A stretch of DNA of 14,011 nucleotides from a virus. The stretch lies in the UHGV virus genome UHGV-0131161, one strand, 5' to 3'. Each line of letters begins with the position of its first letter. The first letter of the stretch is position 1. The notes under the pieces were generated by a model. The model saw only the letters and a list, made by a program, of their open reading frames with translations. It made no database searches and had not been told where the DNA came from. Below, piece after piece: positions 1 to 14,011 of the stretch. Position numbers and translations under genes: made by a program.

Positions 1-934
1 GGTCACGCTCAATATCACGCTGGCATGACTGACATAGCGGAATCGCGTAAATGTCATGCGCGCATAATCGACTATGACGAACGATATAGGGCGTAATGTG
101 AGCACCATCCCCCGCAGCTCCACAAGCACAACATGGACGAGAAGCAACAAAGTCCATGTATTCGGGCAATTTTAGCGATTGCAGTTTTGGTATTTTGAAA
201 TGCGCCATACCTGGATCGGGGTCAACATCCACAGGACATACTTTTGCACGCATCGGCGCGGCGCGTTCTTCCATCATCTGAACATATGCTGTAGCTCGAT
301 CGTCATACGGGCGAATATCCGCCTCTTTCAGAGGTCCGCTATCCTGCGGTGCAGCCTTCATCTTATTTATTGATATGCGGCAGACTTCTTCCGGCATCAG
401 GTGCATCATGTTGCGCATGAAAGCCCACCAGCACAGCTCCTGAATACTTAAATCATGCCCATCTGAAAGGCCCATTTCCTGACGGGCTACATCCAGTATC
501 CAGTTAACGCGATTATTATGCAGCGTTTCTGTCAGCTCATTAAAACCACGCATCCGGTAATGGTTATCGTGATGCCAGCACAACAACACCGCGCTATTGT
601 CTCGTTCAGCGTGGACAATATGGTTGTCACACCAACTACGATCTGCGGCCTGGCATTGCCCCTCTTTCCTACGCAACCACGCCACCAGCGCGTCAATTCC
701 ACCAAGACGACGAAACAGTTCATCGCTGTTAAAAAACGGCTGCAATGCTTCGTTTGTTGCCATGGATTGCTCGGTAACAACGAGGCCATCTTCCATGTGC
801 TCGATTAACTCGCGCGGCACCGGCTCCATAATAAATTTACGGCCAGCCTCCACCAGCTTTCTGACCTCCTGATCCACTTTGAACGTGGCGAGGCCAAGCT
901 CTTTCTGAACAAAGGGAGTAATTACGGCTTTCAC
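1..934 (-). CDS. Hypothetical protein, partial (3' end beyond window start); Cys/His-rich segment near the window edge
   Basis: Open minus-strand frame with no stop from 934 to position 1 (about 311 codons); absent from the ORF track because no stop lies in the window. First in-frame candidate start is GTG at 934-932, preceded by AAGGTG; the upstream in-frame stop is TAA at 962-964. Translation begins [24 protein letters not shown] and ends ...[47 protein letters not shown]. Confidence 0.5.
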
Positions 935-961
935 ATCACACCTTTCATCACTGATTGGGCT

Positions 962-1141
962 TTATCTGCTGCCCGGCATTCTCTGTTTAAGCACAACCAT
1001 TTCCTGACGGCATAACACAGCAATAGCAGTCCTGGCTCCAATTTGCTTACCAACCAGGTATTGCTTTACCTTGCGGCGACTCACGCCATCAAGAAGCATC
1101 TTTAACGCTTTACGGGACAATTTGTTGTATTTGCGTGCCAT
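962..1141 (-). CDS. Small basic hypothetical protein (59 aa), downstream of doc
   Basis: Track ORF 962..1162 trimmed to the ATG at 1141, which has GGAG about 9 nt upstream and sits 2 nt after the stop of the preceding gene. Lys/Arg-rich (MARKYNKLSRKALKMLLDGVSRRKVKQYLVGKQ...). Confidence 0.5.
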   Translation of the reverse strand: MARKYNKLSRKALKMLLDGVSRRKVKQYLVGKQIGARTAIAVLCRQEMVVLKQRMPGSR

Positions 1142-1145
1142 TAAT

Positions 1146-1421
1146 CTACTCCGCAGAACCATACAATCTACGTAACGTCATAGCAGTAGATGCAGATATC
1201 GCCCTTATAACTTCCTCCTTACTTACATCACTGCGGGAGAGGATTTCAGAAGGCGATATTTCCTTTAATGACTTCTGCTTCTCTTTGCAGCTCTCGACCA
1301 GTTCCGCAGGAATAACAAACCTGCTATCAATCGGCACAAGTTCATCAAGCGTTTGTTTGGGTACGTTAAACGTAGGAACCTTAAACGCCGCAGATTCAGT
1401 TCTTAAGTTAATTCTCGTCAT
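1146..1421 (-). CDS. Hypothetical protein (91 aa), immediately downstream of doc
   Basis: ATG at 1421 with GGAG about 10 nt upstream. C-terminus TLRRLYGSAE resembles the Doc C-terminus in this window ([10 protein letters not shown]). Confidence 0.55.
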   Translation of the reverse strand: MTRINLRTESAAFKVPTFNVPKQTLDELVPIDSRFVIPAELVESCKEKQKSLKEISPSEILSRSDVSKEEVIRAISASTAMTLRRLYGSAE

Positions 1422-1440: not shown

Positions 1441-1821
1441 TCAAGTATTGGAACCATATAGTTCACGTAGCTTTTCTGCGACGGAAGATACGGCGATTTC
1501 ACCAGTCGCAGCCCCTACAGTAAGGTCTGCCAGTTCAGGTGAATCAAATACCTGCACCCCGTTACGGCGTAGAAATAGCAGCGCACTGTTTAGCGCGGTA
1601 CGCTTATTGGCATCATTGAATATATGCCCTCTCGCAGTAGCCACCAGGTAGGTGGCGGAGACTTCGAAAAGGTCGGTGATCTCTTCGTAGGCAACTCTGG
1701 CCTGAACTCTCCCGATAATGGCCTCTGCCCTACCCGGATCTGACATTCCCGGCAGGCCGCCGTAGCGGTTTATATTCGCATCATGAAGCGCAATAAGTTC
1801 TTCCGGTGATATATGCCTCAT
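1441..1821 (-). CDS. doc: Doc toxin (Fic-fold, death-on-curing) of the phd-doc toxin-antitoxin pair
   Basis: 126-aa product [95 protein letters not shown]... matches my recollection of P1 Doc nearly residue for residue. Start ATG shares one nucleotide with the phd stop (TAATG). Confidence 0.93.
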
Positions 1822-2042
1822 TATCGGTTAACCAGTTCCTTGTTGGTGGAGTCCAGGGTGTCAAACAGGGATGCAAATTCAGCATCCAGCGCCGCTTTTT
1901 TGTAGGCTTCGAAAGTAGCCTTGCTGACAATTACTGCTGGCTCACGGCCTCTGCGGGTGATTTCAACCTCTTCCCCGGCTTCAACATTGTTGAGCACTTC
2001 AGAAAGGTTGCCGCGCGCGGTACGGAAGTTAATGGATTGCAT
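1821..2042 (-). CDS. phd: Phd antitoxin (Phd/YefM family)
   Basis: 73-aa product [73 protein letters not shown] from the ATG at 2042 (GAGGTG 5 nt upstream). The track start at 2048 is an upstream GTG; the shorter form matches P1 Phd as I recall it. Confidence 0.93.
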
Positions 2043-2048
2043 AAACAC

Positions 2049-2080
2049 CTCGTGTACTCGTTATGTGTACACAATTATAA
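2049..2080 (-). promoter_or_regulatory. phd-doc promoter/operator region: -10 TATAAT plus two GTGTAC core motifs
   Basis: On the minus strand, TATAAT (complement of 2074-2079) is followed by the perfect 10-bp palindrome TGTGTACACA (2064-2073) and a second GTGTAC core (2052-2057), all just upstream of the phd RBS. Layout fits autoregulation by Phd/Doc binding palindromic operators. Confidence 0.55.
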
Positions 2081-2114
2081 ACCTCACAGGCATAAAGCAC
2101 CAGCCCTTTGCAGC

Positions 2115-2504
2115 TTAAATAACCGGACAATCATCAAACTCCCCACTTCGGGCATCATTGATGACATGAGTGATCACACCAAAAACAGCATTACTGCCCG
2201 TGCATCCATCGTCATCTACTGGTAACGCCTCTTTCTTCCCGGTGCTTAAATCCTCCAGGTGCTGGCGCGGATACTTCCTGTATCTCTTTATGCGATATTC
2301 ACCCTCCATAGCGCATATAAGCAGTGAACCATCAACCGGAGTAAGTGAGGAATCAACCACCAGCAAAGCACCTTGCAATATTCCCTCACGGTGATGGCTG
2401 TCTGCCGCCCGCATGAAGTAGGTCGCGGAAGGATGTCTGATTAGTTGCTGATCAAGAGAAATGCGGCTCTCTGCATAATCCGCCGCAGGAGAAGGGAAGC
2501 CCAT
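2115..2504 (-). CDS. humD: UmuD'-like protein (S24 LexA/UmuD family), naturally lacking the N-terminal arm upstream of the UmuD cleavage site
   Basis: Product begins [30 protein letters not shown], aligning with E. coli UmuD from Gly25 ([29 protein letters not shown]). The catalytic Ser (DSH for GDSM) and Lys (EYRIKRY for EFTVKKL) are retained. RBS AAGGT upstream of the ATG at 2504. The arrangement LexA box, humD, phd, doc matches P1. Confidence 0.9.
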   Translation of the reverse strand: [129 protein letters not shown]

Positions 2505-2522
2505 AGCGTTTTACCTTAATGA

Positions 2523-2542
2523 TACTGTTTATTCATACAGTA
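2523..2542 (-). promoter_or_regulatory. LexA box (SOS operator) in the humD promoter
   Basis: TACTGTTTATTCATACAGTA is a perfect CTGT-N8-ACAG match, 19 nt upstream of the humD start. On the minus strand it is immediately preceded by TATACT (-10-like), with TTCACA about 18 nt further upstream (-35-like). Confidence 0.85.
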
Positions 2543-2627
2543 TACATTGAAAAGGCATAGTTTGTGAAAGCGGGGTTTGTAGGCGCGCCACGCTGGGGGC
2601 TAATCACATTTCTCCCCCATCTTGCCG

Positions 2628-2879
2628 TTATTTTTTTGGTGCATCCTCGTTCTGATACACCGGATCGCTCCCTTTTGGCAACTGGAGGCTTAACTGCCGG
2701 TAGTGCCGTAGCCGTTCCATGAAATAGGCGCGCAGGTTTTCCGGTTGCTCACGGGCCACCTGCTCTGCAATCACAGGTATATTCAGCCGTTCTTTGTAAG
2801 CAACGCCGCTGGCGGCAAGGTCTACGTTCACCTTGTCTCGCTCTTCCTGGCTTTTAGCTGCTATATTTCGATCTGACAT
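2628..2879 (-). CDS. hot: Homolog of DNA polymerase III theta subunit (HolE-like)
   Basis: Core [43 protein letters not shown] aligns with E. coli HolE ([43 protein letters not shown]). GGGAGG sits 6 nt upstream of the ATG at 2879. Position just upstream of humD fits P1 hot. Confidence 0.8.
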
Positions 2880-2910
2880 AAGAACCTCCCGGAGTTAGTG
2901 GATCAGGCAC

Positions 2911-3267
2911 ATGCACAATAACGTTCTCAATGTTAGCCGTTCAATTCAGACAATCAGAGACTGCACCAGTGTGGTGGCATCAATCCCATTGCGAAATAGC
3001 ATAGACGAACTGCAAATTCGTGTATTGAACCTGAATCATGCCAATGCAATTAAGCAATTGCGCTTTATTTTGACGCTTAAAAGTGAAGCAGAGGGGGTAA
3101 AGCACAGCGTAAAAGTGTTTTCTGAGGCCATTCTGCTTAATGGGAAGCTCCGGCATCTGGTAAGGCCAGAACGTCAATATCCTGACGTCCTGGCTCGTGA
3201 AAAATACCTTCTTTCCGAAGTTCAAGATAAGGTGATCGATTTCGTTAAATCTCATCCCCTGCATTGA
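2911..3267 (+). CDS. Hypothetical protein (118 aa); the only plausible plus-strand gene, strand assignment uncertain
   Basis: AT-rich segment; the plus-frame product has ordinary composition with several rare codons (AGA, ATA, CGA, AGG, CGG). A competing antisense ORF (2980..3264, minus) cannot be excluded. Only 31 bp separate its ATG from the hot start and there is no clear RBS. Confidence 0.3.
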   Translation: MHNNVLNVSRSIQTIRDCTSVVASIPLRNSIDELQIRVLNLNHANAIKQLRFILTLKSEAEGVKHSVKVFSEAILLNGKLRHLVRPERQYPDVLAREKYLLSEVQDKVIDFVKSHPLH

Positions 3268-3306
3268 GAGCAGGTGTTCCTCTTTGTAACAAAGATGCCA
3301 CCAGCA

Positions 3307-3573
3307 TTATGGTTCGCATTTCCAAATGGTGTTCTGAACGCCCGTGCCGGGCGCGAGATGTGGATTAGCGTTCGCGCTATGCTGATATACGGCTTTAGAC
3401 TTTCCATATTGCTGACAGGCTTTATCTGCGGTTTTTTGCAGACTATCCAGCCCATACCAGCCATCTGACTGGATGCTTACCTTTTCACCGTCGTTGTATT
3501 GCACCATTGCACACCCAGACATAGCCAAGATCGCGCCGACAATAACGCTTTTCCATAAAACTCTATGCAACAT
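3307..3573 (-). CDS. Small secreted protein or lipoprotein candidate (88 aa)
   Basis: From the ATG at 3573 (GAGGGG upstream): MLHRVLWKSVIVGAILAMSGC..., a basic N-region, hydrophobic core and a Cys in lipobox-like context (AMSGC; Met at -3 is atypical). The track start at 3579 is an upstream TTG. Confidence 0.5.
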   Translation of the reverse strand: MLHRVLWKSVIVGAILAMSGCAMVQYNDGEKVSIQSDGWYGLDSLQKTADKACQQYGKSKAVYQHSANANPHLAPGTGVQNTIWKCEP

Positions 3574-3578
3574 ATACA

Positions 3579-3608
3579 AAAATCCCCTCTGTGAATTGAG
3601 GGGATTTT
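3579..3608 (-). terminator. Perfect 11-bp-stem hairpin ending the long minus-strand operon, overlapping the RBS of the following gene
   Basis: AAAATCCCCTC (3579-3589), 8-nt loop, GAGGGGATTTT (3598-3608). On the minus strand the stem is followed by a T-run (ATTTTTGTAT). The GAGGGG arm doubles as the RBS of the 3307..3573 gene. Confidence 0.5.
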
Positions 3609-3682
3609 AGCATGGTGATCAGATATCAGCTTTATTCAGAATTTTACCCACCAGCTATGTGATTTTTTCTGACAGGTCATCT

Positions 3683-4489
3683 TTAATACTTGCACTTATG
3701 ACATGCGAATCTCCACTGTTCATGGTCAAAGCACCAGAATACTTCCCTGGGCAGATTGTGTTTTTTCATTTGCGCCAGCACGTGCGTTGGCGTATTTGCG
3801 GGGATTTCTGGTAGCAAAGCCTTAGCCATTTCATGAATTAACATAGCATCTATTACCCCAAGCGTATGCCCAGCCTTAATCTTTAATGCGGTTTCAAGAT
3901 GGCCCCTTTCCAGAGTTGTACTCACTCTTGGCTTCGGCGCTTGTGGATGGGTATCCAGACGGTTGCCAGATTCATAGGCTACCCGCAGCCAGTGCATGAA
4001 TGTTTCCGTAGACACACAACCGCAGTCCTGGTCGATTTTTTCGTGTTGCTGCCCCAGCCACTGCTCAAAATTTAACTTGTTGGATGCTTCTAGAGCCTCT
4101 TCGTATTGTTTGCGCGAAATTATTTCCGTGTATTCCTCACGATCAAGGTTACTTATCGGGAGTCTGACCTCAAGGCAAAAATGGCGTCCTCGCAGGCTTT
4201 TTGCCGGGTCAGAGCCAAAAGCAAAGAGGCCATATGATGGTTCATACTCGTCCTCTCTAACCATGCGACAATCGAGCACATCATCAGGCCACCCTCCACG
4301 CTTTGGCAGCTCCTGCACCAATAAGTCAATCAGCTTTATTGTTTCACCATCCTTGCAGGTTGCTAACGCTATTTTGGCAAGCTCCAACACCTCATCTGCC
4401 GTATATCCAGCACCGTGACCATACATTTCTATTCGTGCGATAATGTCCAATAAACGAGTTTTAGTTATCCTCATATCGCTCACCATCAT
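3683..4489 (-). CDS. Hypothetical protein (268 aa), last gene of the five-gene coupled block
   Basis: Start reassigned to the ATG at 4489, which overlaps the stop of the upstream membrane-protein gene (ATGA); the track's 4588 start would overlap that gene by about 100 nt. No motif recognised. Confidence 0.6.
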   Translation of the reverse strand: MMVSDMRITKTRLLDIIARIEMYGHGAGYTADEVLELAKIALATCKDGETIKLIDLLVQELPKRGGWPDDVLDCRMVREDEYEPSYGLFAFGSDPAKSLRGRHFCLEVRLPISNLDREEYTEIISRKQYEEALEASNKLNFEQWLGQQHEKIDQDCGCVSTETFMHWLRVAYESGNRLDTHPQAPKPRVSTTLERGHLETALKIKAGHTLGVIDAMLIHEMAKALLPEIPANTPTHVLAQMKKHNLPREVFWCFDHEQWRFACHKCKY

Positions 4490-4794
4490 AGATACACAAA
4501 AACCAAAACCCAAAGGCAGGCGACAGTAGGGACGGTAAAATCCTGCAAGCTCGCCATATCCCATACGCGTGGATCGAAACCGCCCCACCAGGGCATATTG
4601 CTGCGCTTACCGTTCCCGAACTTGTTTATCCATCGGTATTCAGCCTGGGTGTGTTCACGCGCAATAAAGAACGTGATCCCTGCTATCGCTCCATAAATCC
4701 AGTTGCCAGTTAATGTGCCCATAAGCACCTGAGCTAAAACGGCACAAGCCGCATGTAATAATGGGGTAATATCAAAGGACTTATTATTTTTCAT
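4486..4794 (-). CDS. Small membrane protein (102 aa), predicted transmembrane segments
   Basis: Hydrophobic stretches LLHAACAVLAQVLMGTLTGNWIYGAIAGITFFIA and VPTVACLWVLVFVYL. Stop overlaps the start of the 268-aa gene (ATGA). Confidence 0.6.
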   Translation of the reverse strand: MKNNKSFDITPLLHAACAVLAQVLMGTLTGNWIYGAIAGITFFIAREHTQAEYRWINKFGNGKRSNMPWWGGFDPRVWDMASLQDFTVPTVACLWVLVFVYL

Positions 4795-5170
4795 TGCGTG
4801 ACATCCTCTTCCATTTCTTTTCGCATTCCTTAGTCCAATTTTTAATGTTCATTTTGGCAATGTCAGTCATTCCATCGCCTAAGAAATACTTTTTCCGGTA
4901 TGTCTTACACTTAAACCACACTACAATAGCCACCAACCAGAAAATAAAAGGCCATACAGCAATGCCAACGACAGCCGCGATAAAGCCCAATAGCCATAAA
5001 TGAAGCTCTCCTACTTCTGTTTCAGGCAATATCTTTAAAGAGTTAAACAGCAGACTGAACGAATGGTCGTATGCAGTGGCGGTATAAGACATGCAATCCA
5101 TATAATTAAAATCATAGCCTGCGGCTGCCGCCCATAATGGGCGGTCAAGAAAATGTTTGAATGTCATCAT
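4784..5170 (-). CDS. Membrane protein (128 aa) with a long hydrophobic segment and Lys-rich C-terminus
   Basis: Segment LWLLGFIAAVVGIAVWPFIFWLVAIVVWF followed by a KK-rich tail. Its start is 7 nt after the upstream stop and its 3' end overlaps the next gene by 11 nt. Confidence 0.6.
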   Translation of the reverse strand: MMTFKHFLDRPLWAAAAGYDFNYMDCMSYTATAYDHSFSLLFNSLKILPETEVGELHLWLLGFIAAVVGIAVWPFIFWLVAIVVWFKCKTYRKKYFLGDGMTDIAKMNIKNWTKECEKKWKRMSRNEK

Positions 5171-5176
5171 ATGAAT

Positions 5177-5470
5177 TTAAGGTTCAGACCAGTTATCTTC
5201 AATAACAATACTTAATCTCTGTAGCCATTCTGCTAATTTCAGCATTGCTTCTCTTTCGCTTAACCCGCGCGGGAAATCATCAAGCGATATTGTTGGCTTG
5301 AAGTTCCCGAAATTATCCATTTCAACGGTCAGATTTTGCTCCAGCACGGTATTCCTTGCGCGACTATTGTGCCGAAGCAAATATACTGAATGTGATTCAT
5401 TGGTTTTGTGGTCGAACGTATATTCGGTAAGTATCATCTGGCTTTTGCCATGACTATTACCTCTCCACAT
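5177..5470 (-). CDS. Hypothetical soluble protein (97 aa)
   Basis: Start reassigned to the ATG at 5470 (GAGGT 5 nt upstream), immediately after the stop of the 40-aa peptide ORF. The track's longer form from 5566 would overlap that ORF. Confidence 0.55.
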   Translation of the reverse strand: MWRGNSHGKSQMILTEYTFDHKTNESHSVYLLRHNSRARNTVLEQNLTVEMDNFGNFKPTISLDDFPRGLSEREAMLKLAEWLQRLSIVIEDNWSEP

Positions 5471-5477
5471 ACTTACC

Positions 5478-5600
5478 TCACTTAATAAAACAACTCCATG
5501 CGTAGTTGATGATTTTTTCCCACGCAATATAAATCTGCACTCCGGCAGTAAAACCAAAGCCAACAATTGCTGAAAAAATCAAAATATTTACTTTTGACAT
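5478..5600 (-). CDS. Small hydrophobic peptide (40 aa), not in the ORF track
   Basis: ATG at 5600 to TGA at 5478-5480 gives MSKVNILIFSAIVGFGFTAGVQIYIAWEKIINYAWSCFIK, with a single predicted transmembrane helix. Its stop lies 8 nt before the next start. Found by manual translation. Confidence 0.4.
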   Translation of the reverse strand: MSKVNILIFSAIVGFGFTAGVQIYIAWEKIINYAWSCFIK

Positions 5601-5648
5601 TATAAAATTTCTCTCGGTGCAGTAGGTGATAGCACCATAATTGATAAT

Positions 5649-5882
5649 TTAGTGAGTTAGCAGTTCCATTTTTTTGATGATTTCCGCATGAGCATCATCG
5701 TTATCAACACTTAGCTCGTTTAATGCTTCTCGCACTACATCAACCTCTTCAGGCTGAAGGAAGTCGTCGCGGTAATCACCAAATAGAACCGAAACCAGCC
5801 TGCCACCAGCAACATCAAGATTGGCGCTAACAGGTGGCTCTTTGCCATCCTCAAATTCGACTACAAAAGTTAATTTTCCCAT
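5649..5882 (-). CDS. Hypothetical acidic protein (77 aa)
   Basis: ATG at 5882 with a strong RBS (AGGGGG) that overlaps the stop of the 27-aa peptide ORF. The track start at 5900 is a TTG. Product MGKLTFVVEFEDGKEPPV.... Confidence 0.6.
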   Translation of the reverse strand: MGKLTFVVEFEDGKEPPVSANLDVAGGRLVSVLFGDYRDDFLQPEEVDVVREALNELSVDNDDAHAEIIKKMELLTH

Positions 5883-5884
5883 CG

Positions 5885-5968
5885 TTACCCCCTGCGACAA
5901 ATTGAATACACAACCAGTGCTACCGCCATTGCAATTCCGACCGTGGTGAATGCCTCAGGCCAGCTCAT
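5885..5968 (-). CDS. Small hydrophobic peptide (27 aa), not in the ORF track
   Basis: ATG at 5968 overlaps the DUF551 gene stop (ATGA), with GGAGG 6 nt upstream. Product MSWPEAFTTVGIAMAVALVVYSICRRG. Its TAA lies inside the RBS of the next gene. Confidence 0.4.
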   Translation of the reverse strand: MSWPEAFTTVGIAMAVALVVYSICRRG

Positions 5969-6669
5969 TGATCGACCTCCTGCGGCGGTTCTGGTAGCGA
6001 CATCCAGTCGGTTACATTGCGACTCTGTGTTTCGAAAAATTCATCACCATTGCGGACAATATCGAAAAACTCTCCGTCTCGATATTGCGCATAAAGAACG
6101 AATGCGCCATCACATAAAATAATTACGTGCTGACCATCCTCTGGCATTCGCTCACTACAGCTTATCCAACCATCCGGAGTTACCGGATAGTTGCCATTCA
6201 CAAGGTCAGCTCGAACATATAGCGTGTCATCATGGTGCTGATTGTGGCTGCACCACGTTAATTCGCTTAACTCGCCATCTTCTGGCCATACTCCAGCTGT
6301 TTGCAGCCAGATATGGGCTGGCGCATCTTGGCAAGGTGTATTAACTGGCAACTTGTAAGTTTGGCTTACAGGTTGGCTACCCTGAAGCATGGCAGCGTGG
6401 CAGGCATCCTCTACGCCCTTTACTGCATCTGCGCAGTAGTTATAGCGATTGCATTCCACTAATTTCCGTTTGAGTTTTTCAATTGCTTGCGCGACATCAG
6501 CCTGTATTTCCGGAACTGGCGGTTCTGCCCGGCCTTTCCAGCCTTCCCACATGGCAGCCATCATCACGAACCAAGCGTTTCCACAGCCATCTTTTTTGTT
6601 ATCAAAGAACCAGTCAGCGAACTCTAGGCTCATGCCATTTTGTTCTGCTATTTCATATCGATTATCCAT
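5965..6669 (-). CDS. DUF551-domain phage protein (234 aa)
   Basis: C-terminal GWISCSERMPEDGQHVIIL...DGEFFDI...VTDWMSLPEPPQ matches the DUF551 signature as I recall it (W-I-S-x-E-R-L-P-E ... T-H-W-M-P-L-P-E-P-P). Confidence 0.7.
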   Translation of the reverse strand: MDNRYEIAEQNGMSLEFADWFFDNKKDGCGNAWFVMMAAMWEGWKGRAEPPVPEIQADVAQAIEKLKRKLVECNRYNYCADAVKGVEDACHAAMLQGSQPVSQTYKLPVNTPCQDAPAHIWLQTAGVWPEDGELSELTWCSHNQHHDDTLYVRADLVNGNYPVTPDGWISCSERMPEDGQHVIILCDGAFVLYAQYRDGEFFDIVRNGDEFFETQSRNVTDWMSLPEPPQEVDQ

Positions 6670-7033
6670 TGTTCTTCTCCTTGTTTAGCATGGCAGCACG
6701 GCAGGCATTCCAGCCTCTCACCTCTGCAATAGCGGCAACAGCATCGACCGCGTACATTTTAAGAGGGTTGGGCATTGGTTTTTCTTCAGGTACTACTGGC
6801 ACTGGAGTGGCGGCATAAACAGGAATAACGTCCGCTTGCTCTTTATTGCTTTCATCCGTTAAAGCCCAGAATAATTTCCCGGCAGGATGTTTGAAAATAT
6901 AAGCAACTGGATCTGCTTCCAGCGATGCCAGTGCAATTTCATAAGCACGGCGCTCAATATTGTCTCGAACGTCCAAGCTGCCTATGCGCTCTTTGATTTC
7001 TTTAATCAGTTCTTTGTCGGTAAAAGTGGTCAT
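6662..7033 (-). CDS. Hypothetical phage protein (123 aa) sharing a short motif with the adjacent DUF551 gene
   Basis: C-terminal GWNACRAAML parallels ACHAAML in the DUF551 protein, with a 20-nt DNA match. ATG at 7033 lies 1 nt after the Ea22-like gene stop. Confidence 0.6.
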   Translation of the reverse strand: MTTFTDKELIKEIKERIGSLDVRDNIERRAYEIALASLEADPVAYIFKHPAGKLFWALTDESNKEQADVIPVYAATPVPVVPEEKPMPNPLKMYAVDAVAAIAEVRGWNACRAAMLNKEKNNG

Positions 7034-7034
7034 G

Positions 7035-7787
7035 TCACTCTCCTTTGATGCGAATGCCAGCGTCAGACATCATATGCAGATACTCAACTGCATCCTGAAC
7101 CCATTGACCGCCAATCCCGTAATAGCGATGCGTAATGATGTCGATAGTTACTAACGGGTCTTGTTCGATTAACTTCCGCAGAAACTCTTCCAGGTCACCA
7201 GTGCAGTGCTTGATGACAGGAGTTTTCCCAGGATGGCGAACAACAAGAAACTGATTTCCGACTTCACGGACTTCGTTGCTTTCCAGTTCTGCAATGCGCT
7301 TCTCTGAGGCTTCCAGCTTCTCGCGCATATCGTCAACGTACTCGACCAGAGAACCGCCAGCAGGAATTTCGCACTCCTCGACCAGTTGGAAGTAGATATC
7401 AGCTGCGGCCCGTGTGTTGCTATGCCTAGCGTCGCCCATCTCACCTTCACGAAGAGCATCGCGTTCGGCGGTAAGATTGGCTATTTTGCTGTCTTTGCCT
7501 TCCAGCTCAACGCGCAGCCTCCCAACCGTAAGCGCAATATCCTCGTTCTCCTGGTCGCGTGATTTGATGTATTGCTGGTTTCTTTCCCGTTCATCCAGTA
7601 GTGCCAGCACGGTTTCTGGTCCGGCCAGAAATTTGAAGGCGTTGAGCGCATCAATATCCACACCGTAATCTTTAAGTTCCTGTTCACTTAACAAATCATC
7701 ATCAACTGGCAACATTAACAGGCGTTCCATTGCCGGAATTGCACGTTCTGCCGCCTCACGCAGTGCCTGATAGTCAATCTTGCTCAT
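7035..7787 (-). CDS. Ead/Ea22-like family protein (250 aa), paralog 2
   Basis: N-terminus MSKIDYQALREAAERA..., which I associate with lambdoid Ea22-like early accessory proteins; central coiled-coil-like region. Family assignment from memory. Confidence 0.6.
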   Translation of the reverse strand: MSKIDYQALREAAERAIPAMERLLMLPVDDDLLSEQELKDYGVDIDALNAFKFLAGPETVLALLDERERNQQYIKSRDQENEDIALTVGRLRVELEGKDSKIANLTAERDALREGEMGDARHSNTRAAADIYFQLVEECEIPAGGSLVEYVDDMREKLEASEKRIAELESNEVREVGNQFLVVRHPGKTPVIKHCTGDLEEFLRKLIEQDPLVTIDIITHRYYGIGGQWVQDAVEYLHMMSDAGIRIKGE

Positions 7788-7788
7788 G

Positions 7789-8088
7789 TCACATCACCCT
7801 GAATCCGTTGCATTTACGTAAGAAATCGCAGATATAGCCCTTCATTTTTTCATGCCAATCTCGATCATTCCCATTGCACCAACCATCAGGTGGAGTCCAG
7901 TTTTCTATCAGAGCAGCCATTTTCTTTGCTTTCGCCGGAGTAGCTGTTGCGGTATCGCAGTAATGACGAGTGTCAACCAACGCATCCATACCATCGATAT
8001 CAAGTACGCAAAACCATGTGTGATTCGGCATTTCAACAGATGGTATTTGTTGCCCACGTCGACGTTTATCAATAAGACATACAGTCAC
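7789..8088 (-). CDS. Hypothetical protein (99 aa) between the two Ea22-like genes
   Basis: GTG start at 8088 with a strong RBS (AAGGAGG 7 nt upstream), overlapping the upstream stop (GTGA). Its stop lies 1 nt before the next ATG. Confidence 0.55.
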   Translation of the reverse strand: MTVCLIDKRRRGQQIPSVEMPNHTWFCVLDIDGMDALVDTRHYCDTATATPAKAKKMAALIENWTPPDGWCNGNDRDWHEKMKGYICDFLRKCNGFRVM

Positions 8089-8723
8089 TGGTTGCCTCCT
8101 TTGCGAAGCTGTTCAGCAATACTTACGCATATCTCTGCGCCTCTAATCAGCCCCGGAACGTTCTTGTTTGGCCCAACTTCACCATCAACAAAATCAATCA
8201 TCGCGTTACGAGCCATATCCACGCCCTGCGCCCGTACTTCAGCCAGGAAAGCATCGGTGGCTGGAATGGGCTTTTGTGGTGATATAGCAATGCGAATTGT
8301 CTCAAGGTCTGGATCTGTTTCCGCTGCTGGCACCTTGATATAACCCATCTGCACCCCATTCATGATGAACCTGCGACGGTCATCACATATCGCCTTTAGC
8401 CCCGCATTCTCGGCCACCAGCGCCGCGAGATTAGTCTCAAGCTCTGCAATTCGACACATAGCATCAATATTTGTGTCCTCCAGGCACTTAATTTCACCAA
8501 GCAGCTCCAGTGCAACCTTTGGGTTGAACGCGGCAACATGACGAGCGTTGTTCTCTGCATTTTTCTGTCCATCAAAGCCGGTCCATTTGATAACGTCTTC
8601 ACATCGTTCATCACCGGGCGTGTGCACCGCATAAGTACCAGTATCCGTCGAAATAAATGCGACCCATTCGTCTGGTGTTGCCTTTTCTGCCGCCTCACGC
8701 AGTACCTGATAGTCAATTGTCAT
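8085..8723 (-). CDS. Ead/Ea22-like family protein (212 aa), paralog 1
   Basis: Start reassigned to the ATG at 8723 (MTIDYQVLREAAEKATPDEW...), which overlaps the upstream stop (ATGA) and has GAAGGA upstream. Shares a 33-nt near-identical 5' segment with paralog 2. Confidence 0.6.
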   Translation of the reverse strand: MTIDYQVLREAAEKATPDEWVAFISTDTGTYAVHTPGDERCEDVIKWTGFDGQKNAENNARHVAAFNPKVALELLGEIKCLEDTNIDAMCRIAELETNLAALVAENAGLKAICDDRRRFIMNGVQMGYIKVPAAETDPDLETIRIAISPQKPIPATDAFLAEVRAQGVDMARNAMIDFVDGEVGPNKNVPGLIRGAEICVSIAEQLRKGGNQ

Positions 8724-9364
8724 TCTCGCCATCCTTCACAGTTGTAATCACTACAGCCTTCAAAATCATATGGGCTGTACTGCCAGGTTATTTTTCCGCA
8801 ATGCGGACAATTCCAACGCACCTTCCCGCTTCGCGACTTCTTTCTTCTGTTCTGCTCTTTCAACCAGTCAGGCATGACCAAACCTGCGCCCTGAACCATT
8901 GTTCTGCGGTTAAAGTTATTGATATTGAACGTCCGACGCTTTGCTGAATCAGCAATGGAAAATGGCAACCAAACTATTCCTGGTTCGTTTTTGTTGGCGA
9001 CGCTAAAGATGGTCGCTTTACTGAAGTCATCTGTTGGCAATCCACCGTGTTGAAGCCAGTAAACATCGTTGCCGTTCCAGCTACCTTTTTTGTAGGCCAC
9101 ATACGCAGTGCAATCTGACTCAATCAGGCTTTCTGTAGGGATGTACTGGCAATCAACGTGCCACACAGCCATTGCATCCACACTATCGGCACAAACAGGC
9201 TGATCGATATCTCGCCCACAATTCCAGGCTTTTTGGGCTTCTTCCAGCGTGTAAACATGAGCGCGATCGATATCAGAACTGTAACCATTGCCGTTATGGC
9301 AATGGAATGAAGCGTTATTACCCACAGTTTCACGCAAGCACATCATGTAAAAGCGGTTATTCAC
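8720..9364 (-). CDS. Hypothetical protein (214 aa) with a C-terminal Cys cluster
   Basis: C-terminal NCPHCGK...CSDYNC (CxxC-N15-CxxxxC), a possible zinc ribbon. Coupled to flanking genes by overlaps. Confidence 0.55.
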   Translation of the reverse strand: MNNRFYMMCLRETVGNNASFHCHNGNGYSSDIDRAHVYTLEEAQKAWNCGRDIDQPVCADSVDAMAVWHVDCQYIPTESLIESDCTAYVAYKKGSWNGNDVYWLQHGGLPTDDFSKATIFSVANKNEPGIVWLPFSIADSAKRRTFNINNFNRRTMVQGAGLVMPDWLKEQNRRKKSRSGKVRWNCPHCGKITWQYSPYDFEGCSDYNCEGWRE

Positions 9365-9572
9365 TGGTCGCCTCCCAGCAAATTTGTCTTATATAAGAAC
9401 TGTTAACGCGCTTTACTTTCCCGTCGAACTCCAGTTTCTTTAGACGACGCAAAACGTATGCCGTTTTGAGTGTGCGATATTTATCCCTAAGCCAGTTGGT
9501 CACGACGTAAGTCATACAGCGCCCGTGTTCTTCCAACACCCGAACTATTTCTTCGTCGGTTGGCTTGCTCAT
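9357..9572 (-). CDS. Small basic hypothetical protein (71 aa), possible DNA-binding fold
   Basis: Basic product (…LRRLKKLEFDGKVKRV…); ATGA overlap with the upstream gene. Fold assignment is speculative. Confidence 0.5.
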   Translation of the reverse strand: MSKPTDEEIVRVLEEHGRCMTYVVTNWLRDKYRTLKTAYVLRRLKKLEFDGKVKRVNSSYIRQICWEATSE

Positions 9573-9790
9573 TTTGTCGCTCCTTCAGCTTTCTCTACTT
9601 TCGCTGCCATGATTTCCAGCTTTTGTGCTGCCGATACCGCTAACCTGTGAAATTCTTCATCTGTTTCAACTGGAATTGGTACAAACCTGACACCAATTTG
9701 AGCAAGGCTATGCGCCATTTCGAGACTTGCTCTTAACTCTGCTGGGGATGCTTTATTCAGGCCGACTTCCTCACAAATAACTGATTGCAT
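9569..9790 (-). CDS. Small hypothetical phage protein (73 aa)
   Basis: ORF in the coupled gene train; no motif recognised. Confidence 0.5.
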   Translation of the reverse strand: MQSVICEEVGLNKASPAELRASLEMAHSLAQIGVRFVPIPVETDEEFHRLAVSAAQKLEIMAAKVEKAEGATK

Positions 9791-9799
9791 ACGCTCGCC

Positions 9800-10525
9800 C
9801 TACTGAATACGCTCAAACTCGATTACCCAAACCCAGGGATTAGCACTCCAGCTTTCTTCGCCGTAGATGGACTCCCACAGACGCTGGAACGCAACCTTTG
9901 CCATTGCGAAGTCCCCATTGGGAGTAAGGAATGTTCCCGGGTAATCAGGAAGCAAACTTCCAGCAGGCGGAACGCCCTCAGCCCCTGCATCGCATTCGCT
10001 GATATCGTTCAACCGCTCAACGCGCACGTTGGTAATTTCCAACAGAATGCGTGATGCCCATCGCGGCATGTGAATTGATGGACGCCACCCACCATCAAAC
10101 TTTTCATTCACAGTGTGAGGTTTCCAGTCGGCATCATCGGGTATCGACCATAAGCCGTAATCACCAGGCTTTTGCTCACAACTGGCCCGATAAATCCTTG
10201 CTGCGCTCTTCTCATCGCCACGACAAAGGTTGTCGTTCCAGTCCACACTGCAACCATCCTCATTGCCTAATATCGCCCATGTTTCACGAACCCAAATTCG
10301 ATCGCCGACGATACCAAAGGGGCAATTGAAAACACTGCTTACACCATCAGCCCCGTACCACTGAAAACCTGCACCAATTTTTCTAACCATCACTGGTGCT
10401 TCTGGACCAACTTCCGCAGGCTGATTTTTCATTATCCGCCGCGTCTGCGTTTTCCTTCCTTCGAGGATGGCCCGGACCATCTCATCGTTGAAAATCATGC
10501 CGCGCTCTTTCACTTCGCCTTTCAT
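9800..10525 (-). CDS. Putative ASCH/PUA-like domain phage protein (241 aa)
   Basis: N-terminal MIFNDEMVRAILEGRKTQTRR resembles the conserved start of phage ASCH-domain proteins as I recall it. ATG at 10525 lies 7 nt after the stop of the 28-aa peptide ORF. Confidence 0.55.
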   Translation of the reverse strand: MKGEVKERGMIFNDEMVRAILEGRKTQTRRIMKNQPAEVGPEAPVMVRKIGAGFQWYGADGVSSVFNCPFGIVGDRIWVRETWAILGNEDGCSVDWNDNLCRGDEKSAARIYRASCEQKPGDYGLWSIPDDADWKPHTVNEKFDGGWRPSIHMPRWASRILLEITNVRVERLNDISECDAGAEGVPPAGSLLPDYPGTFLTPNGDFAMAKVAFQRLWESIYGEESWSANPWVWVIEFERIQ

Positions 10526-10534
10526 GCATCCCCC

Positions 10535-10621
10535 TTACCCATGCGCGACGATGCCGCCAAAAGTGATAGAGAACAGCCAGAAATAGATCGCGGCCATAAT
10601 GATTTTGAATGCCGTGTTCAT
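10535..10621 (-). CDS. Small hydrophobic peptide (28 aa), first ORF of the long operon; not in the ORF track
   Basis: ATG at 10621 with AGGAG 8 nt upstream; product MNTAFKIIMAAIYFWLFSITFGGIVAHG; TAA at 10535-10537. Confidence 0.4.
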   Translation of the reverse strand: MNTAFKIIMAAIYFWLFSITFGGIVAHG

Positions 10622-10648
10622 ATTTTCAGCTCCTGTGATTGATTAGAT

Positions 10649-10680
10649 ACATGCCGCGCCTTGCGGCATGTTTTTATTTT
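10649..10680 (+). terminator. Rho-independent terminator-like hairpin, U-tract on the plus strand
   Basis: ACATGCCGC (10649-10657), loop GCCTT, GCGGCATGT (10663-10671), then TTTTATTTT (10672-10680). The U-tract is on the plus side even though the flanking genes are on the minus strand. Confidence 0.5.
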
Positions 10681-10703
10681 CACTTTCCCTGCTTTAAAAA
10701 TCA

Positions 10704-10720
10704 AGATTTATTAGAGCAAT
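10704..10720 (-). promoter_or_regulatory. P1 C1-repressor operator-like site (16/17 to consensus)
   Basis: Minus-strand ATTGCTCTAATAAATCT against the recalled consensus ATTGCTCTAATAAATTT. Overlaps the stop of the HAD phosphatase gene and lies about 85 nt upstream of the first ORF of the long operon. Confidence 0.5.
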
Positions 10721-11226
10721 TACTGCTGATGAAGAAGCGCATTTTCATACTCCCTGACCATTAACGTAAGCACGCCGTGTCTCCTGAAAACACGCGCCAC
10801 TTCAATCTTATCTTCCAGCGCGAACGCAATTTTACTTAGACCAATTTTCTTAAGGAGATCAATCTTTGCTGGGCCGTCATTTCTGTCATCGGTGGCAGGG
10901 CGCATAGATAGCAAAGGCTCAGCCCCGTTTGTTACGTACTTCCGCAGCCAAGCTCGTGTTTTATCCCTTGCGATCTCACAGCGCCCGGTTACAAACCAGA
11001 CCGTGTAAACGTTAAATAACTGGCGCACAATATCAATAACTGGAGTTATGGGAGTATCAGTGTCACAGGCGAGATTAAACTCGTTCCAGTCCTTTGTTAA
11101 TGCACCTTTACCTGGTGGCGGAAGCAAATGCAGTCTGTCTTCCGTTGCCTCCGATATTGTTCCATCAATATCGACTATGACGATATACGGACGTTCCTGG
11201 TGTGCGTGTTTATTGAAAATACTCAA
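10720..11226 (-). CDS. HAD-superfamily phosphatase (P1 pap-like acid phosphatase candidate)
   Basis: HAD motif I VDIDGT near the N-terminus (…PYIVIVDIDGTISE…). TTG start at 11226 with a strong RBS (GAGGAGGG); the upstream in-frame stop leaves no ATG option. Confidence 0.65.
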   Translation of the reverse strand: MSIFNKHAHQERPYIVIVDIDGTISEATEDRLHLLPPPGKGALTKDWNEFNLACDTDTPITPVIDIVRQLFNVYTVWFVTGRCEIARDKTRAWLRKYVTNGAEPLLSMRPATDDRNDGPAKIDLLKKIGLSKIAFALEDKIEVARVFRRHGVLTLMVREYENALLHQQ

Positions 11227-11243
11227 ATGCCCTCCTCATTGGA

Positions 11244-11279
11244 CGAAAAAAATGCTGGTGGGACGCACTCCACCAGCAT
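11244..11279 (-). terminator. Rho-independent terminator after the coiled-coil protein gene; stem formed by a Chi octamer and its complement
   Basis: ATGCTGGTGG (11252-11261), loop GACGCACT, CCACCAGCAT (11270-11279). On the minus strand it is followed by TTTTTTT (complement of 11244-11250). Confidence 0.6.
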
Positions 11280-11299
11280 TAAAAGTGACACTGTAACTA

Positions 11300-12562
11300 T
11301 CAGCGAACGTAAATAGTGCCGCCGTTCTCTTTTTCCCATGCGTCGCTACGTGCATAGCAAACATCGAGAAGTCTTCTTGCCGCTGTTTCCTCTAAACCCA
11401 ATTCGACAACCAACTGTTCATGACGGCGGGTAACCACATCAAACAACGTATGCAGCCCTTTAGTTGCCAGTTCATCAATGAATTCCGGTTCGAACGGTAG
11501 CTCTGCATCTGCCAACATAACCTCTTGCGCCCACTCGACACGGCGGACCAGTTCCGGGCGGCGGCTTTCCATCTCTTTACAGATCAATTCATGGAAGAAC
11601 TCTACCCAACCTTCCGGCTGGAACTCGCGGAAAATGGCCAGCGGCTGGAAGTTTGGCATCAACCATTCGTTGATTCGGATATCAATGGCATAGCCCATGT
11701 CACAGCAGAACTGATAAGCAAAGTCCAGCTTAGAAACGATATAAGGGCGCTCGTTATTGAACTCTTTAGGCGATGAGATCCCATAAGCCAGGAGGCGCGG
11801 GAAGAAGGATATTTGCCCTAACGTCGGATGGAGTTTACTTGCAGGGAAACGGCGCTCAGTAATGCCATACATTTCCTTCTTGAGTGTCGCAAATTTGGCA
11901 TTTTCATTAACCAGCTCGGTAACCTCTGCTTTTTTATTAGCAAATGCCACGCGCGCCTCACTTGCATCTTTAATGGCCTTTTTGAGCTGTTGGTTAAGGT
12001 CGGCGACCTGCTTACGCAGTTCCTGGCGCTCGCTTTTGGCTTTGTTATAGCGTTTCTCAAGGTTAAAAGGATCAAGTTTCATGATCTCTTTATATTGAGA
12101 TTTTAGCGTTGAAATCTGTGAGTTCCGCAGCTCAACCATCGCAGTCATTTCATTGAGTTTTGTTTCCAACTCAATGCTTATACGTTCGGCATTATCAGCA
12201 CGCTGGTTGGCGTCATGCGTCGCATCGTCGATGGCGTCCTGTTGCTGGCGTTTCAAATGCTCAATTTGCAGCTGAAGCTCTTCAATTTCTTTCCCCTTCA
12301 GACCGAGATCCAGCTGCATATTTTCAGCTGCATCTACCAGGTCGTTATGGCTATCAGCTTCTGCGTTATAAACATCAATAAGCTGTGCGTGAAGCATCTC
12401 AGCTGACTGAACCGCATTATCAAAAAAACGTGCTGTGAGGTCATCACAACTAACGCGGCGTTGCGCGGCTCGGATGTTCTGAATAATGGCCGGGATACCG
12501 GCATTCAGGACGTCAGGGATAGATACATTTTCGATTGATTGGTTTTGTGCTGAAGTGCTCAT
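11300..12562 (-). CDS. Coiled-coil protein (420 aa) with a C-terminal globular region (P1 pmgS-position gene)
   Basis: Residues about 70-230 are heptad-like and rich in E/K/Q/L (…EIEELQLQIEHLKRQQQDAIDDATHDANQRADNAERISIELETKLNEM…). Its start is 1 nt after the stop of the upstream small gene. Confidence 0.65.
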   Translation of the reverse strand: MSTSAQNQSIENVSIPDVLNAGIPAIIQNIRAAQRRVSCDDLTARFFDNAVQSAEMLHAQLIDVYNAEADSHNDLVDAAENMQLDLGLKGKEIEELQLQIEHLKRQQQDAIDDATHDANQRADNAERISIELETKLNEMTAMVELRNSQISTLKSQYKEIMKLDPFNLEKRYNKAKSERQELRKQVADLNQQLKKAIKDASEARVAFANKKAEVTELVNENAKFATLKKEMYGITERRFPASKLHPTLGQISFFPRLLAYGISSPKEFNNERPYIVSKLDFAYQFCCDMGYAIDIRINEWLMPNFQPLAIFREFQPEGWVEFFHELICKEMESRRPELVRRVEWAQEVMLADAELPFEPEFIDELATKGLHTLFDVVTRRHEQLVVELGLEETAARRLLDVCYARSDAWEKENGGTIYVR

Positions 12563-12563
12563 T

Positions 12564-12782
12564 TCAAAGTTCCGTATTAGCTTGTGCTTCGGTCATTTTT
12601 CCTAAGTATGAAGGTGGAAGGACTACGCAATTTGTATCCAGTCCCTCACCAATGGCAGCCTGTAAAATTCTGGCTAAGGTGAGTCTCTTGTTGCGATACC
12701 GGGTGATGACATGCCTGATATCGCCGGACGGTGTAACAAAGGCGATCAGCCAGTAGTGATATTTCCGTCGGAATGGCCACAT
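12564..12782 (-). CDS. Small hypothetical protein (72 aa)
   Basis: ATG at 12782 with AAGGTG 6 nt upstream, directly downstream of the operator/terminator complex. Confidence 0.5.
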   Translation of the reverse strand: MWPFRRKYHYWLIAFVTPSGDIRHVITRYRNKRLTLARILQAAIGEGLDTNCVVLPPSYLGKMTEAQANTEL

Positions 12783-12796
12783 AGTGCACCTTATGG

Positions 12797-12862
12797 ATTG
12801 CTCTAATAAAAAACGTGATGAGTGTACATCACGTTTTAAAAATATGGAATTATTAGAGCAAT
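12797..12862 (-). promoter_or_regulatory. Pair of inverted P1 C1 operator-like sites flanking a 10-bp-stem terminator hairpin
   Basis: Plus-strand ATTGCTCTAATAAAAAA (12797-12813; 14/17) and minus-strand ATTGCTCTAATAATTCC (complement of 12846-12862; 14/17) flank the hairpin AAACGTGATG (12811-12820) / CATCACGTTT (12827-12836). A T-run follows the hairpin on the minus strand. Confidence 0.5.
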
Positions 12863-12863
12863 A

Positions 12864-13565
12864 TTATTCTGATTCTTGCTCAAAAAACGCGCTAATGAGG
12901 GGAAGCCAATCCTCTGACACTTCGCGAGGTCGCGGTTTGCCGTGGAAAAAGATTATTCGGCAGTCCTTTGGTAATGCCCCATTCCCCCTGGAGTAACGCG
13001 CGCTTGCATATTTAGAACCAGGTTCCACAACATCGGCCTTGTAACTTACAAACCATCCCGGATACAGATCCTGAAATGCTGGTGTGTCATCGCCCATAAC
13101 CTTCCGCAAGAACCCCTGATCACCCCAGCACTCAGTAGTAACACAACGAGCAATCCAACCTTCCGGATCTTGCCAGAATGCACTCCAGATGTGCGCTTTT
13201 ACACTATTTGGTATCCACAGAGCACCGCTGCCACGATATTGTGGATGGTAAAAATCCCTAAGCATGGTGAAGCTGGTTGGTGGATTCTCAAGAATTGGGC
13301 GTATATCACCGGCAATAACCGTGTCCAAATCCAGGTAGAAGAGATCATCGGTTATATCCGGTCGAAACAACTCGATTTTCGCCCACCAGCCACGGCACTT
13401 TTGCCACTGGTTGATTAATGGGACAACCTTAACGCCTGGCACATGTAAACTCTTCAGGTCTGTCAGGCAAATAATTTCATAGCCTTTTGGCAGCTGATTA
13501 ACCAGCCACTGCACATCGGAAGCGTTATAGTCGCCACCAGAGCGAAGAACTAAAGCAATCTTCAT
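12864..13565 (-). CDS. Putative DxD-motif nucleotide-sugar transferase-like protein (233 aa; P1 pmgQ-position gene)
   Basis: N-terminal strand MKIALVL and an acidic DLD triad in YLDLDTV near residue 80, reminiscent of GT-A glycosyltransferases; low-confidence fold guess. ATGA overlap with the phosphatase gene stop. Confidence 0.55.
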
Positions 13566-14011
13566 GCTGCACCATCACCTTTCACTTTCATCAATGTCAG
13601 GTTTCCGCAAAATACGGCTCCAGTGTCGATATAATGCTGATTCCAGAATGTCTTCGGGCTTTTCACCGGGGTATGACCAAAGATAAAACGATCTGCTCCC
13701 GAAATTTCGCCACCAATATCATCCATCGAATCACTGATACGCTCGCGCGCCCAGACAACATTGAAAAGCGGTACCTCCTTACCGAATTGATATTCATTAT
13801 CCGGATAGTCGGCATGGGCTATAACAATAGTTTCTCGCCCGGTGTTCAGCTCAATGATATAGGGCAGACGTCTTACCAGCTCCACCAGCGCCCTGGCTAA
13901 TATTTCCTGATCAGTGTCGAGCATGAAGAACCATTGTCCGCCATTCATTAGCCAGTTATTCACGTTGCCATCGGGGCTTAACGCATCAATCATCAGCCGC
14001 TCATGGTTGCC
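13562..14011 (-). CDS. Lambda-type Ser/Thr protein phosphatase (calcineurin-like metallophosphatase), partial; N-terminus beyond window end (P1 ppp-like)
   Basis: Frame stays open to the window edge. Contains GNHE at the edge (revcomp of 13994-14011 gives GNHERL), plus GHTP and IDTGA motifs typical of PPP-family metallophosphatases. Confidence 0.85.

Follow-up and report, generated by a model that had tools for sequence, protein, structure and literature searches.

We find that a tightly packed run of minus-strand genes in the UHGV virus genome UHGV-0131161 is probably the pmgT operon (the 'hea' operon in phage P7) of a P1-like phage-plasmid. We put the probability at roughly 80% that it is an early unit of this kind, consisting of a conserved backbone head and a body of shuffled cassettes. 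The original prediction, made from the DNA letters and their reading frames, had described about 7 kb, from a C1-operator-like site at 10704-10720 down to a hairpin at 3579-3608, as a one-strand gene train carrying lambdoid-style cargo inside a P1-type backbone. Here, the window means the whole stretch of 14,011 nucleotides (nt) that was analysed, and all positions refer to it.

Sequence comparison identifies the 14-kb window as a segment of a P1-like phage-plasmid. P1, P7, RCS47, SJ46, JL22 and their relatives match at 95–96% identity, each covering at most 63% of the window (megablast). Alignment to the reference P1 genome (NC_005856, locus L001; blastn; window position equals P1 locus position plus 3720) agrees with the predicted P1-type flanks, since 9830-14011 matches at 96.4% and hot at 84%; all P1-aligned genes except lxr-type genes are on the minus strand. 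The same alignment, which had been proposed as a check, revealed that P1 does not carry this gene content between 2880 and 9830, where the sole P1 match is a 98-bp patch. These 6.95 kb occupy the place of 1.4 kb in P1, comprising upfO, upfN, upfM, pmgV, pmgU and the 3' end of pmgT. The original prediction put only a few genes between pap and hot in P1; pmgT, pmgU and pmgV are among them as expected, and upfM, upfN and upfO stand there instead of upl.

The predicted operator is the P1 operator Op88 (OpmgT), identical at 17 of 17 positions. The site, read on the minus strand from 10720 to 10704 (ATTGCTCTAATAAATCT), lies at the homologous P1 position, adjoining the pap stop codon, and changes by at most one base across P1, P7, RCS47, MH422554 and p172a. 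A scan with the C1 consensus at up to three mismatches hit the window three times, where shuffles predict 0.09; besides Op88 the hits are Op86a and Op86b, both ahead of pmgR, and the train itself contains none. Op88 overlaps two predicted promoters, P1pmgT and P2pmgT (10676..10719), covering their –35 hexamers, and the sequence of the promoter region is near-identical in all six P1-like loci. Together, the operator, two promoters, 5' hairpin, a 28-amino-acid (aa) open reading frame (ORF) and the beginning of pmgT form a head module that hardly differs between the window, P1, P7, RCS47, MH422554 and p172a, independent of the cargo that follows. The 28-aa ORF, 100% conserved in five P1-like loci, has no family match in Pfam or PHROG; together with the 5' hairpin it is kept in P1, P7, RCS47, MH422554 and p172a and is annotated in none of those records. 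This conservation is little informative on selection, because the loci are near-identical here. The hairpin at 10649-10671, kept in the six loci, has a T-run on its plus-strand side and could therefore also stop antisense transcription.

Behind this head, the train comprises 17 minus-strand ORFs from 10621 to 3683, with 98.8% of the interval coding (Table 1). The expected count of about 21 was too high, while the tight packing stands: 15 of the 16 junctions measure –13 to +9 nt, eight of them with overlapping start and stop codons, the single exception being a 48-nt gap at 5601-5648. Most starts are preceded by a Shine-Dalgarno-like motif and a PHROG or Pfam family was found for 15 of the 17 ORFs; the six longest plus-strand ORFs, tested as antisense genes, matched no PHROG. 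The train closes at the predicted hairpin, read from 3608 to 3579, whose 11-bp stem, T-run and RNA minimum free energy (MFE) of –20.3 kcal/mol (z = –4.1) are those of a good intrinsic terminator. Between 10650 and 3579 it is the one strong minus-strand terminator, the sole internal candidate being a weak site of six pairs (6923 to 6906). Promoter-like sites in the train number 6, compared with 13.6 expected from shuffles. The nine-base –22 motif of P1 late promoters occurs in the train only with one mismatch, on the wrong strand or without a usable –10.

Since the train has no other C1 operator, no convincing internal terminator and fewer promoter-like sites than its shuffles, transcription as a single unit is supported, and we infer that the train is gated by C1 and expressed as one transcript. 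By identity with P1, C1 bound at Op88 would silence the unit in the plasmid prophage by occluding the promoters. Once C1 is inactivated, host sigma-70 RNA polymerase would transcribe the unit early as a single RNA of about 7.1 kb, which would stop at 3579-3608, and the overlapping stop and start codons would couple translation along the train.

Several observations weigh against this model. The hexamer pairs of P1pmgT and P2pmgT are both weak and were missed by the consensus scan. A perfect TATAAT (5604 to 5599), with no recognisable –35, lies in the 48-nt gap, and three minus-strand promoter-like sites with 9 of 12 matching positions (4968, 4866 and 4146) lie in the distal part of the train, so that C1-independent transcription may also start internally. 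C1 control, the transcription start and read-through over about 7 kb are all deduced from the DNA, and an accessory role of the train proteins in the P1 context is argued by analogy. The TATAAT at 5599-5604 (minus strand) overlaps the ATG of a 40-aa gene; no other candidate internal start falls in noncoding DNA of the train.

These sites could instead belong to a train of independently transcribed morons, some of them active in the lysogen, where they would serve lysogenic conversion or superinfection exclusion, and Op88 would govern the first few genes only. The AT-rich distal block (guanine-cytosine content (GC) 0.33–0.41) and its small membrane proteins, which are frequent in morons, fit such an arrangement, as do the TATAAT in the sole gap and the three weak promoter-like sites; a lipoprotein-like gene past the terminator with what appears to be its own extended –10 promoter (3612-3604) indicates that moron-style units do occur at this locus. 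However, the only internal terminator is the weak six-pair site, promoter-like sites are scarcer than in shuffles, and 15 of the 16 junctions, half of them overlapping, leave no space for regulatory DNA. We therefore consider independent morons unlikely and retain the C1-gated pmgT operon.

The hairpin had been expected next to hot. Instead, the lipoprotein-like gene (3307-3573) and a plus-strand ORF (2911-3267) intervene, and hot, at 2628-2879, encodes a protein with 92% amino acid identity to P1 Hot directly after the humD/LexA-box region. We considered 3307-3579 as a candidate for hot and rejected it. The minus-strand gene there encodes an 88-aa lipoprotein-like product (phrog_7757) whose signal peptide ends in …AILAMSGC, and it starts 5 nt past the T-run of the terminator. 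Its predicted promoter, an extended –10 motif (TGcTAAAAT, 3612 to 3604), shares sequence with the 5' arm of the terminator hairpin; RNAs started there would be without that arm and so would escape termination, a moron-like arrangement. The module at 3307-3612 is present in about 130–160 plasmid records.

Table 1. Features of the window, from the operon head to the flanks.
Feature	Position	Strand	Basis or remark
C1 repressor operator Op88/OpmgT	10704..10720	-	ATTGCTCTAATAAATCT, 17/17 with annotated P1 operator
Predicted sigma-70 promoter P2pmgT	-35 10719-10714, -10 10696-10691	-	P1 annotation moved by +3720
Predicted sigma-70 promoter P1pmgT	-35 10704-10699, -10 10681-10676	-	P1 annotation moved by +3720
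Stable hairpin at presumed transcript 5' end	10649..10671	-	MFE -18.3 kcal/mol, z -5.7
28-aa hydrophobic ORF, first of train	10535..10621	-	AGGAG Shine-Dalgarno
PmgT-type protein, 241 aa	9800..10525	-	Predicted ASCH fold, low-confidence insertion at residues 82-157; last backbone gene
Lambda Orf63 homolog (DUF1382), 73 aa	9569..9790	-	Pfam PF07131, E 3.6e-28; 73% to lambda orf63
71-aa protein	9357..9572	-	phrog_9799; winged-helix matches sub-threshold only
214-aa protein, P7 Upf87.6 equivalent	8720..9364	-	phrog_2457; Cys-rich C-terminal segment
Ead/Ea22-family protein, 215 aa	8085..8732	-	Pfam PF13935, E 3.4e-20; phrog_368
DUF7739 protein, 99 aa	7789..8088	-	Pfam PF24881, E 5.5e-21; phrog_1239
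Lambda Ea22 ortholog, 250 aa	7035..7787	-	Pfam PF13935, E 3.9e-29; 56% to lambda Ea22, full length
123-aa protein	6662..7033	-	phrog_5117
DUF551-domain protein, 234 aa	5965..6669	-	Pfam PF04448, E 1.2e-19
27-aa hydrophobic ORF	5885..5968	-	GGAGG Shine-Dalgarno, ATGA overlap; no family match (Pfam, PHROG)
77-aa protein, TTG start	5649..5882	-	phrog_3876, profile aligned from residue 7
40-aa membrane peptide	5478..5600	-	phrog_5525; GC 0.33; preceded by 48-nt gap
97-aa protein	5177..5470	-	phrog_1258
Predicted membrane protein, 128 aa	4784..5170	-	phrog_2638
Predicted membrane protein, 102 aa	4486..4794	-	phrog_1443
Mosaic protein, 268 aa	3683..4489	-	Patchy matches to eight PHROGs
Predicted intrinsic-terminator hairpin closing train	3579..3608	-	11-bp stem (5 GC pairs), 8-nt loop, TTTTTG tail
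Plus-strand ORF, 118 aa	2911-3267	+	phrog_2594; beyond hot
hot	2625-2880		84% to P1 (blastn)
doc, phd, humD, LexA box	1451-2557		Aligned to P1 (blastn)
pdcB, pdcA	1-1200		Aligned to P1 (blastn)
pmgT 5' part, Op88, pap, pmgS, pmgR, pmgQ, ppp	9830-14011		96.4% to P1 (blastn)

The body of the operon would have been assembled by recombination from two gene pools, and the lambdoid character claimed for the whole cargo holds for one of them. The middle block of about 4 kb (5900-9830), with its homologs of lambda Orf63 (73%) and Ea22 (56%), has matches in 541 phage records, for the most part of Stx-converting, lambdoid and P22/HK620-like phages with genes annotated as Ea22, EaA, EaD, EaE and hkaG/H. 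The pool behind it would be the accessory genes that lambdoid and P22-like prophages carry in their repressor-controlled early-left regions (Orf63, Ea22, Ead-type, DUF7739, DUF551). The DUF551 gene is present as predicted (PF04448). Residues 170-250 of the 250-aa Ea22 ortholog match the solved C-terminal domain of Ea22 (PDB 8DSX, E 5.6e-48), and the 214-aa protein is 99% identical to its P7 equivalent and 96% identical to that of an Stx2c phage at the protein level. Pfam searches at E ≤ 10 with the unassigned proteins gave noise only, including weak winged-helix matches for the 71-aa protein and zinc-ribbon-like matches for the 214-aa protein. In complete Escherichia coli genomes, the locus including the middle block matches 7976 chromosomal and 1480 plasmid places.

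The two proteins foreseen as Ea22-like paralogs both belong to the Pfam family Ead_Ea22; they are not close paralogs, having in common only an N-terminal motif of about 15 aa. Apart from the coding DNA of this motif (IDYQ.LREAAE), which occurs at 7739-7778 and 8678-8717 as 40 nt with 90% identity, the train has no direct repeat of note. Other phages keep this 40-nt patch in Ea22-type genes that are otherwise unrelated, and homology breakpoints fall on it. The patch is likely a recombination 'linker', and it could also delete the intervening 939 bp.

The distal 2.3 kb (3600-5900) is different, being almost confined to P1-like plasmids by the matches we obtained. In E. coli genomes it has 373 plasmid vs 18 chromosomal places, and phage matches to 2880-5900 are P1-like only (12 records). 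GC is 0.33–0.41 for three of its genes, and several products are small or membrane proteins; such proteins of P1-like plasmids would constitute the second pool. The 268-aa mosaic protein is 45% identical to P1 PmgU over residues 153-232 (blastp).

The patches of high similarity (92–98% nucleotide identity) between 5900-9830 and Stx or lambdoid phages could also suggest an assembly chimera as the origin of the lambdoid-type cargo, or the arrival of a prophage fragment by a single recent mobile-element insertion. We regard this as highly improbable. The homology comes in patches of 33 to about 1,000 bp and not as a single block, we found no integrase, transposase, insertion sequence (IS) end or flanking direct repeat, and similar genes in other combinations occupy the slot in more than 1,400 P1-like plasmid records as well as in P7, RCS47, SJ46 and JL22.

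Instead, the comparison of loci fits a shuffled cassette body behind a constant head. In a matrix of protein presence and absence, the first two ORFs alone are common to all five P1-like loci and the rest is patchy; the DUF7739 gene and the gene of the 102-aa membrane protein are in none of seven comparison loci. Many homology breakpoints fall at gene boundaries (7786/7787, 8085, 5476, 4811, 5969 and 9375) and others in the Ea22 N-terminal motif (8619 and 8687), an apparent coincidence. Breakpoints at gene boundaries are the pattern classically described for lambdoid mosaicism. Composition separates the pools poorly: in the proposed GC profile the lambdoid block (0.44–0.51) is not distinguishable from the backbone (0.46–0.52), and only 4750-5750 stands out (0.38–0.41). 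Searches of the phage, plasmid and E. coli collections gave no record reaching 80% coverage of 3000-11300; the exact gene combination is, on these comparisons, new, whereas the kind of locus is already known.

The locus had been taken for an expanded variable region. It is expanded relative to P1, yet this is no exception: from pdcB to ppp, P1 has 8.8 kb, compared with 11.5–14.9 kb in P7, RCS47, SJ46, JL22, 813R1 and MH422554, and in plasmids the equivalent of 3000-11300 is about 7.5–9.9 kb long. Expansion is the rule among P1-like elements, and P1 is a short outlier. Our data complement earlier descriptions of a variable region RD-5 'between pap and lxr' (Venturini 2019, PMC6906374) and of a variable region 8 from pmgT to humD (PMC9603915), as well as a study that classed about 30% of the genes of P1-like phage-plasmids as recombining and quantified their gene flow with phages (PMC10879196). 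The P7 GenBank record carries the entry 'Op(hea); predicted to regulate expression of hea operon', with the Ead-like Upf88.3 within that operon.

The train resembles the P1 pmgT and P7 'hea' operons in its place in the backbone, downstream of pap and upstream of hot/humD, and in its strand and polarity. With the P1 pmgT operon it further shares an identical operator, an equal promoter region and leader, and PmgT as the first gene; with P7, RCS47, MH422554 and p172a it shares Ea22-type, DUF551 and ASCH genes in the slot. Unlike the P1 operon, it has another gene set after PmgT: pmgV, upfM, upfN and upfO are missing, and pmgU survives only as the 45% segment of the mosaic protein.

A second point of comparison is the exo-xis region of lambda and the 'ea'/'hka' early-left region of P22 and HK620. 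There too, small genes are tightly packed with fine-scale mosaicism, and orf63 and ea22 keep their order relative to a repressor-controlled early promoter. However, the train lies outside exo-xis in a plasmid prophage, has no N/nut antitermination, and would be controlled by P1 C1 and not by CI at OL. The lambda block orf60a-orf63-orf61-orf73-ea22 is not kept as a block: in a tblastn search with the window proteins only Orf63 and Ea22 match the lambda region, and orf60a, orf61 and ea8.5 were undetected. No recombinase, excisionase or integrase family was found among the train proteins in Pfam or PHROG, and the flanks are PmgT/pap and P1-family genes. With such flanks and no such families, the train carries cargo of the exo-xis type and yet is no exo-xis region.

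PmgT, the first long gene and 98% identical to P1 PmgT over residues 1-232, is the probable source of the predicted ASCH-like gene. In the AlphaFold model the protein has an ASCH (PUA-like beta-barrel) fold, broken by a poorly modelled segment of about 75 residues (82-157). In sequence searches the assignment to ASCH was not recovered, with no Pfam family at E ≤ 0.01, no match of the ASCH profile at E ≤ 10 and a PDB match to ASC-1 only at E 0.91. Compared with known ASCH proteins, such as the E. coli ac4C amidohydrolase YqfB and an L. crispatus ASCH protein (3S9X), the 241-aa PmgT-type protein has the insertion and a C-terminal helical extension. Homologs at 61–74% identity are widespread in records of Klebsiella, Citrobacter, Raoultella and Pantoea (contigs of up to about 5.6 Mb), some still named 'morphogenetic protein'. 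The 'putative morphogenetic' labels of pmgT, pmgU and pmgV are probably misleading, given the modelled ASCH fold of PmgT, and because PmgT is the only protein that the five compared P1-like loci have in common, with no more than 49% identity in P7 and RCS47, and the pmgT region is replaced in JL22 with lysogeny kept (PMC9603915). The three genes are unmentioned in the open-access P1vir transcriptome and P1 mutagenesis papers.

The operon would thus encode dispensable early accessory functions, modulators of lysis-lysogeny and host physiology rather than of virion morphogenesis, by analogy with lambda, where the exo-xis genes are among the first transcribed, from pL, Orf63 is pro-lytic and Ea22 is pro-lysogenic (PMC8614690, PMC7093339, PMC10869804). 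The cargo would sit in a context functionally equivalent to that in lambda, a repressor-gated early accessory operon. Such an operon could alternatively be a defence or counter-defence island. This appears quite unlikely: the ten longest train proteins have no match in PADLOC-DB or NCBIfam, and Pfam detects no nuclease, ATPase, methyltransferase or toxin domain, negatives that bear on defence rather than counter-defence (no anti-defence library was searched). On the preferred reading as the pmgT operon, a more speculative extension, to which we give little credence, is that the Op88-gated slot is a docking site that samples lysis-lysogeny modulators (Orf63, Ea22 and their neighbours) from co-resident lambdoid or Stx prophages; derepression would then cross-modulate the induction or lysogenization of chromosomal prophages, or the reverse.

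Other features of the flanks deserve mention. The LexA-regulated lxr gene of P1 is missing from 2557-3280, and RCS47 is arranged alike at 96% identity. Between doc (1441-1821) and pdcA (962-1162) there is an extra minus-strand ORF of 91 aa (1146-1421, phrog_31462), not present in P1, P7, RCS47 or MH422554. Over its last 18 residues (AISASTAMTLRRLYGSAE) this ORF repeats the C-terminal end of P1 Doc, and Doc of the window has a variant tail, which looks like the footprint of recombination within the 3' end of doc, a toxin gene. The full insert with this ORF is present in only 10 of 956 matching plasmid records, at about 95% identity. Finally, pmgS and pap have between them, on the minus strand, a strong terminator-like hairpin with 11 pairs and a T-run (11251-11280). 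This hairpin delimits pap, together with Op88, as a short unit, for which the consensus scan gave no promoter.

The value of these findings is mainly one of annotation; they establish no new principle and will not surprise a specialist. They provide a well-delimited, concrete case of genes passing between phage-plasmids and integrated prophages. In its behaviour, the slot behind Op88 resembles the early accessory regions of lambdoid phages, with which it trades genes. The slot would be a natural place to seek early-expressed accessory or counter-defence genes. If it did act as a docking site for modulators from co-resident prophages, P1-like plasmids would be tied to the behaviour of Stx phages in pathogenic E. 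coli.

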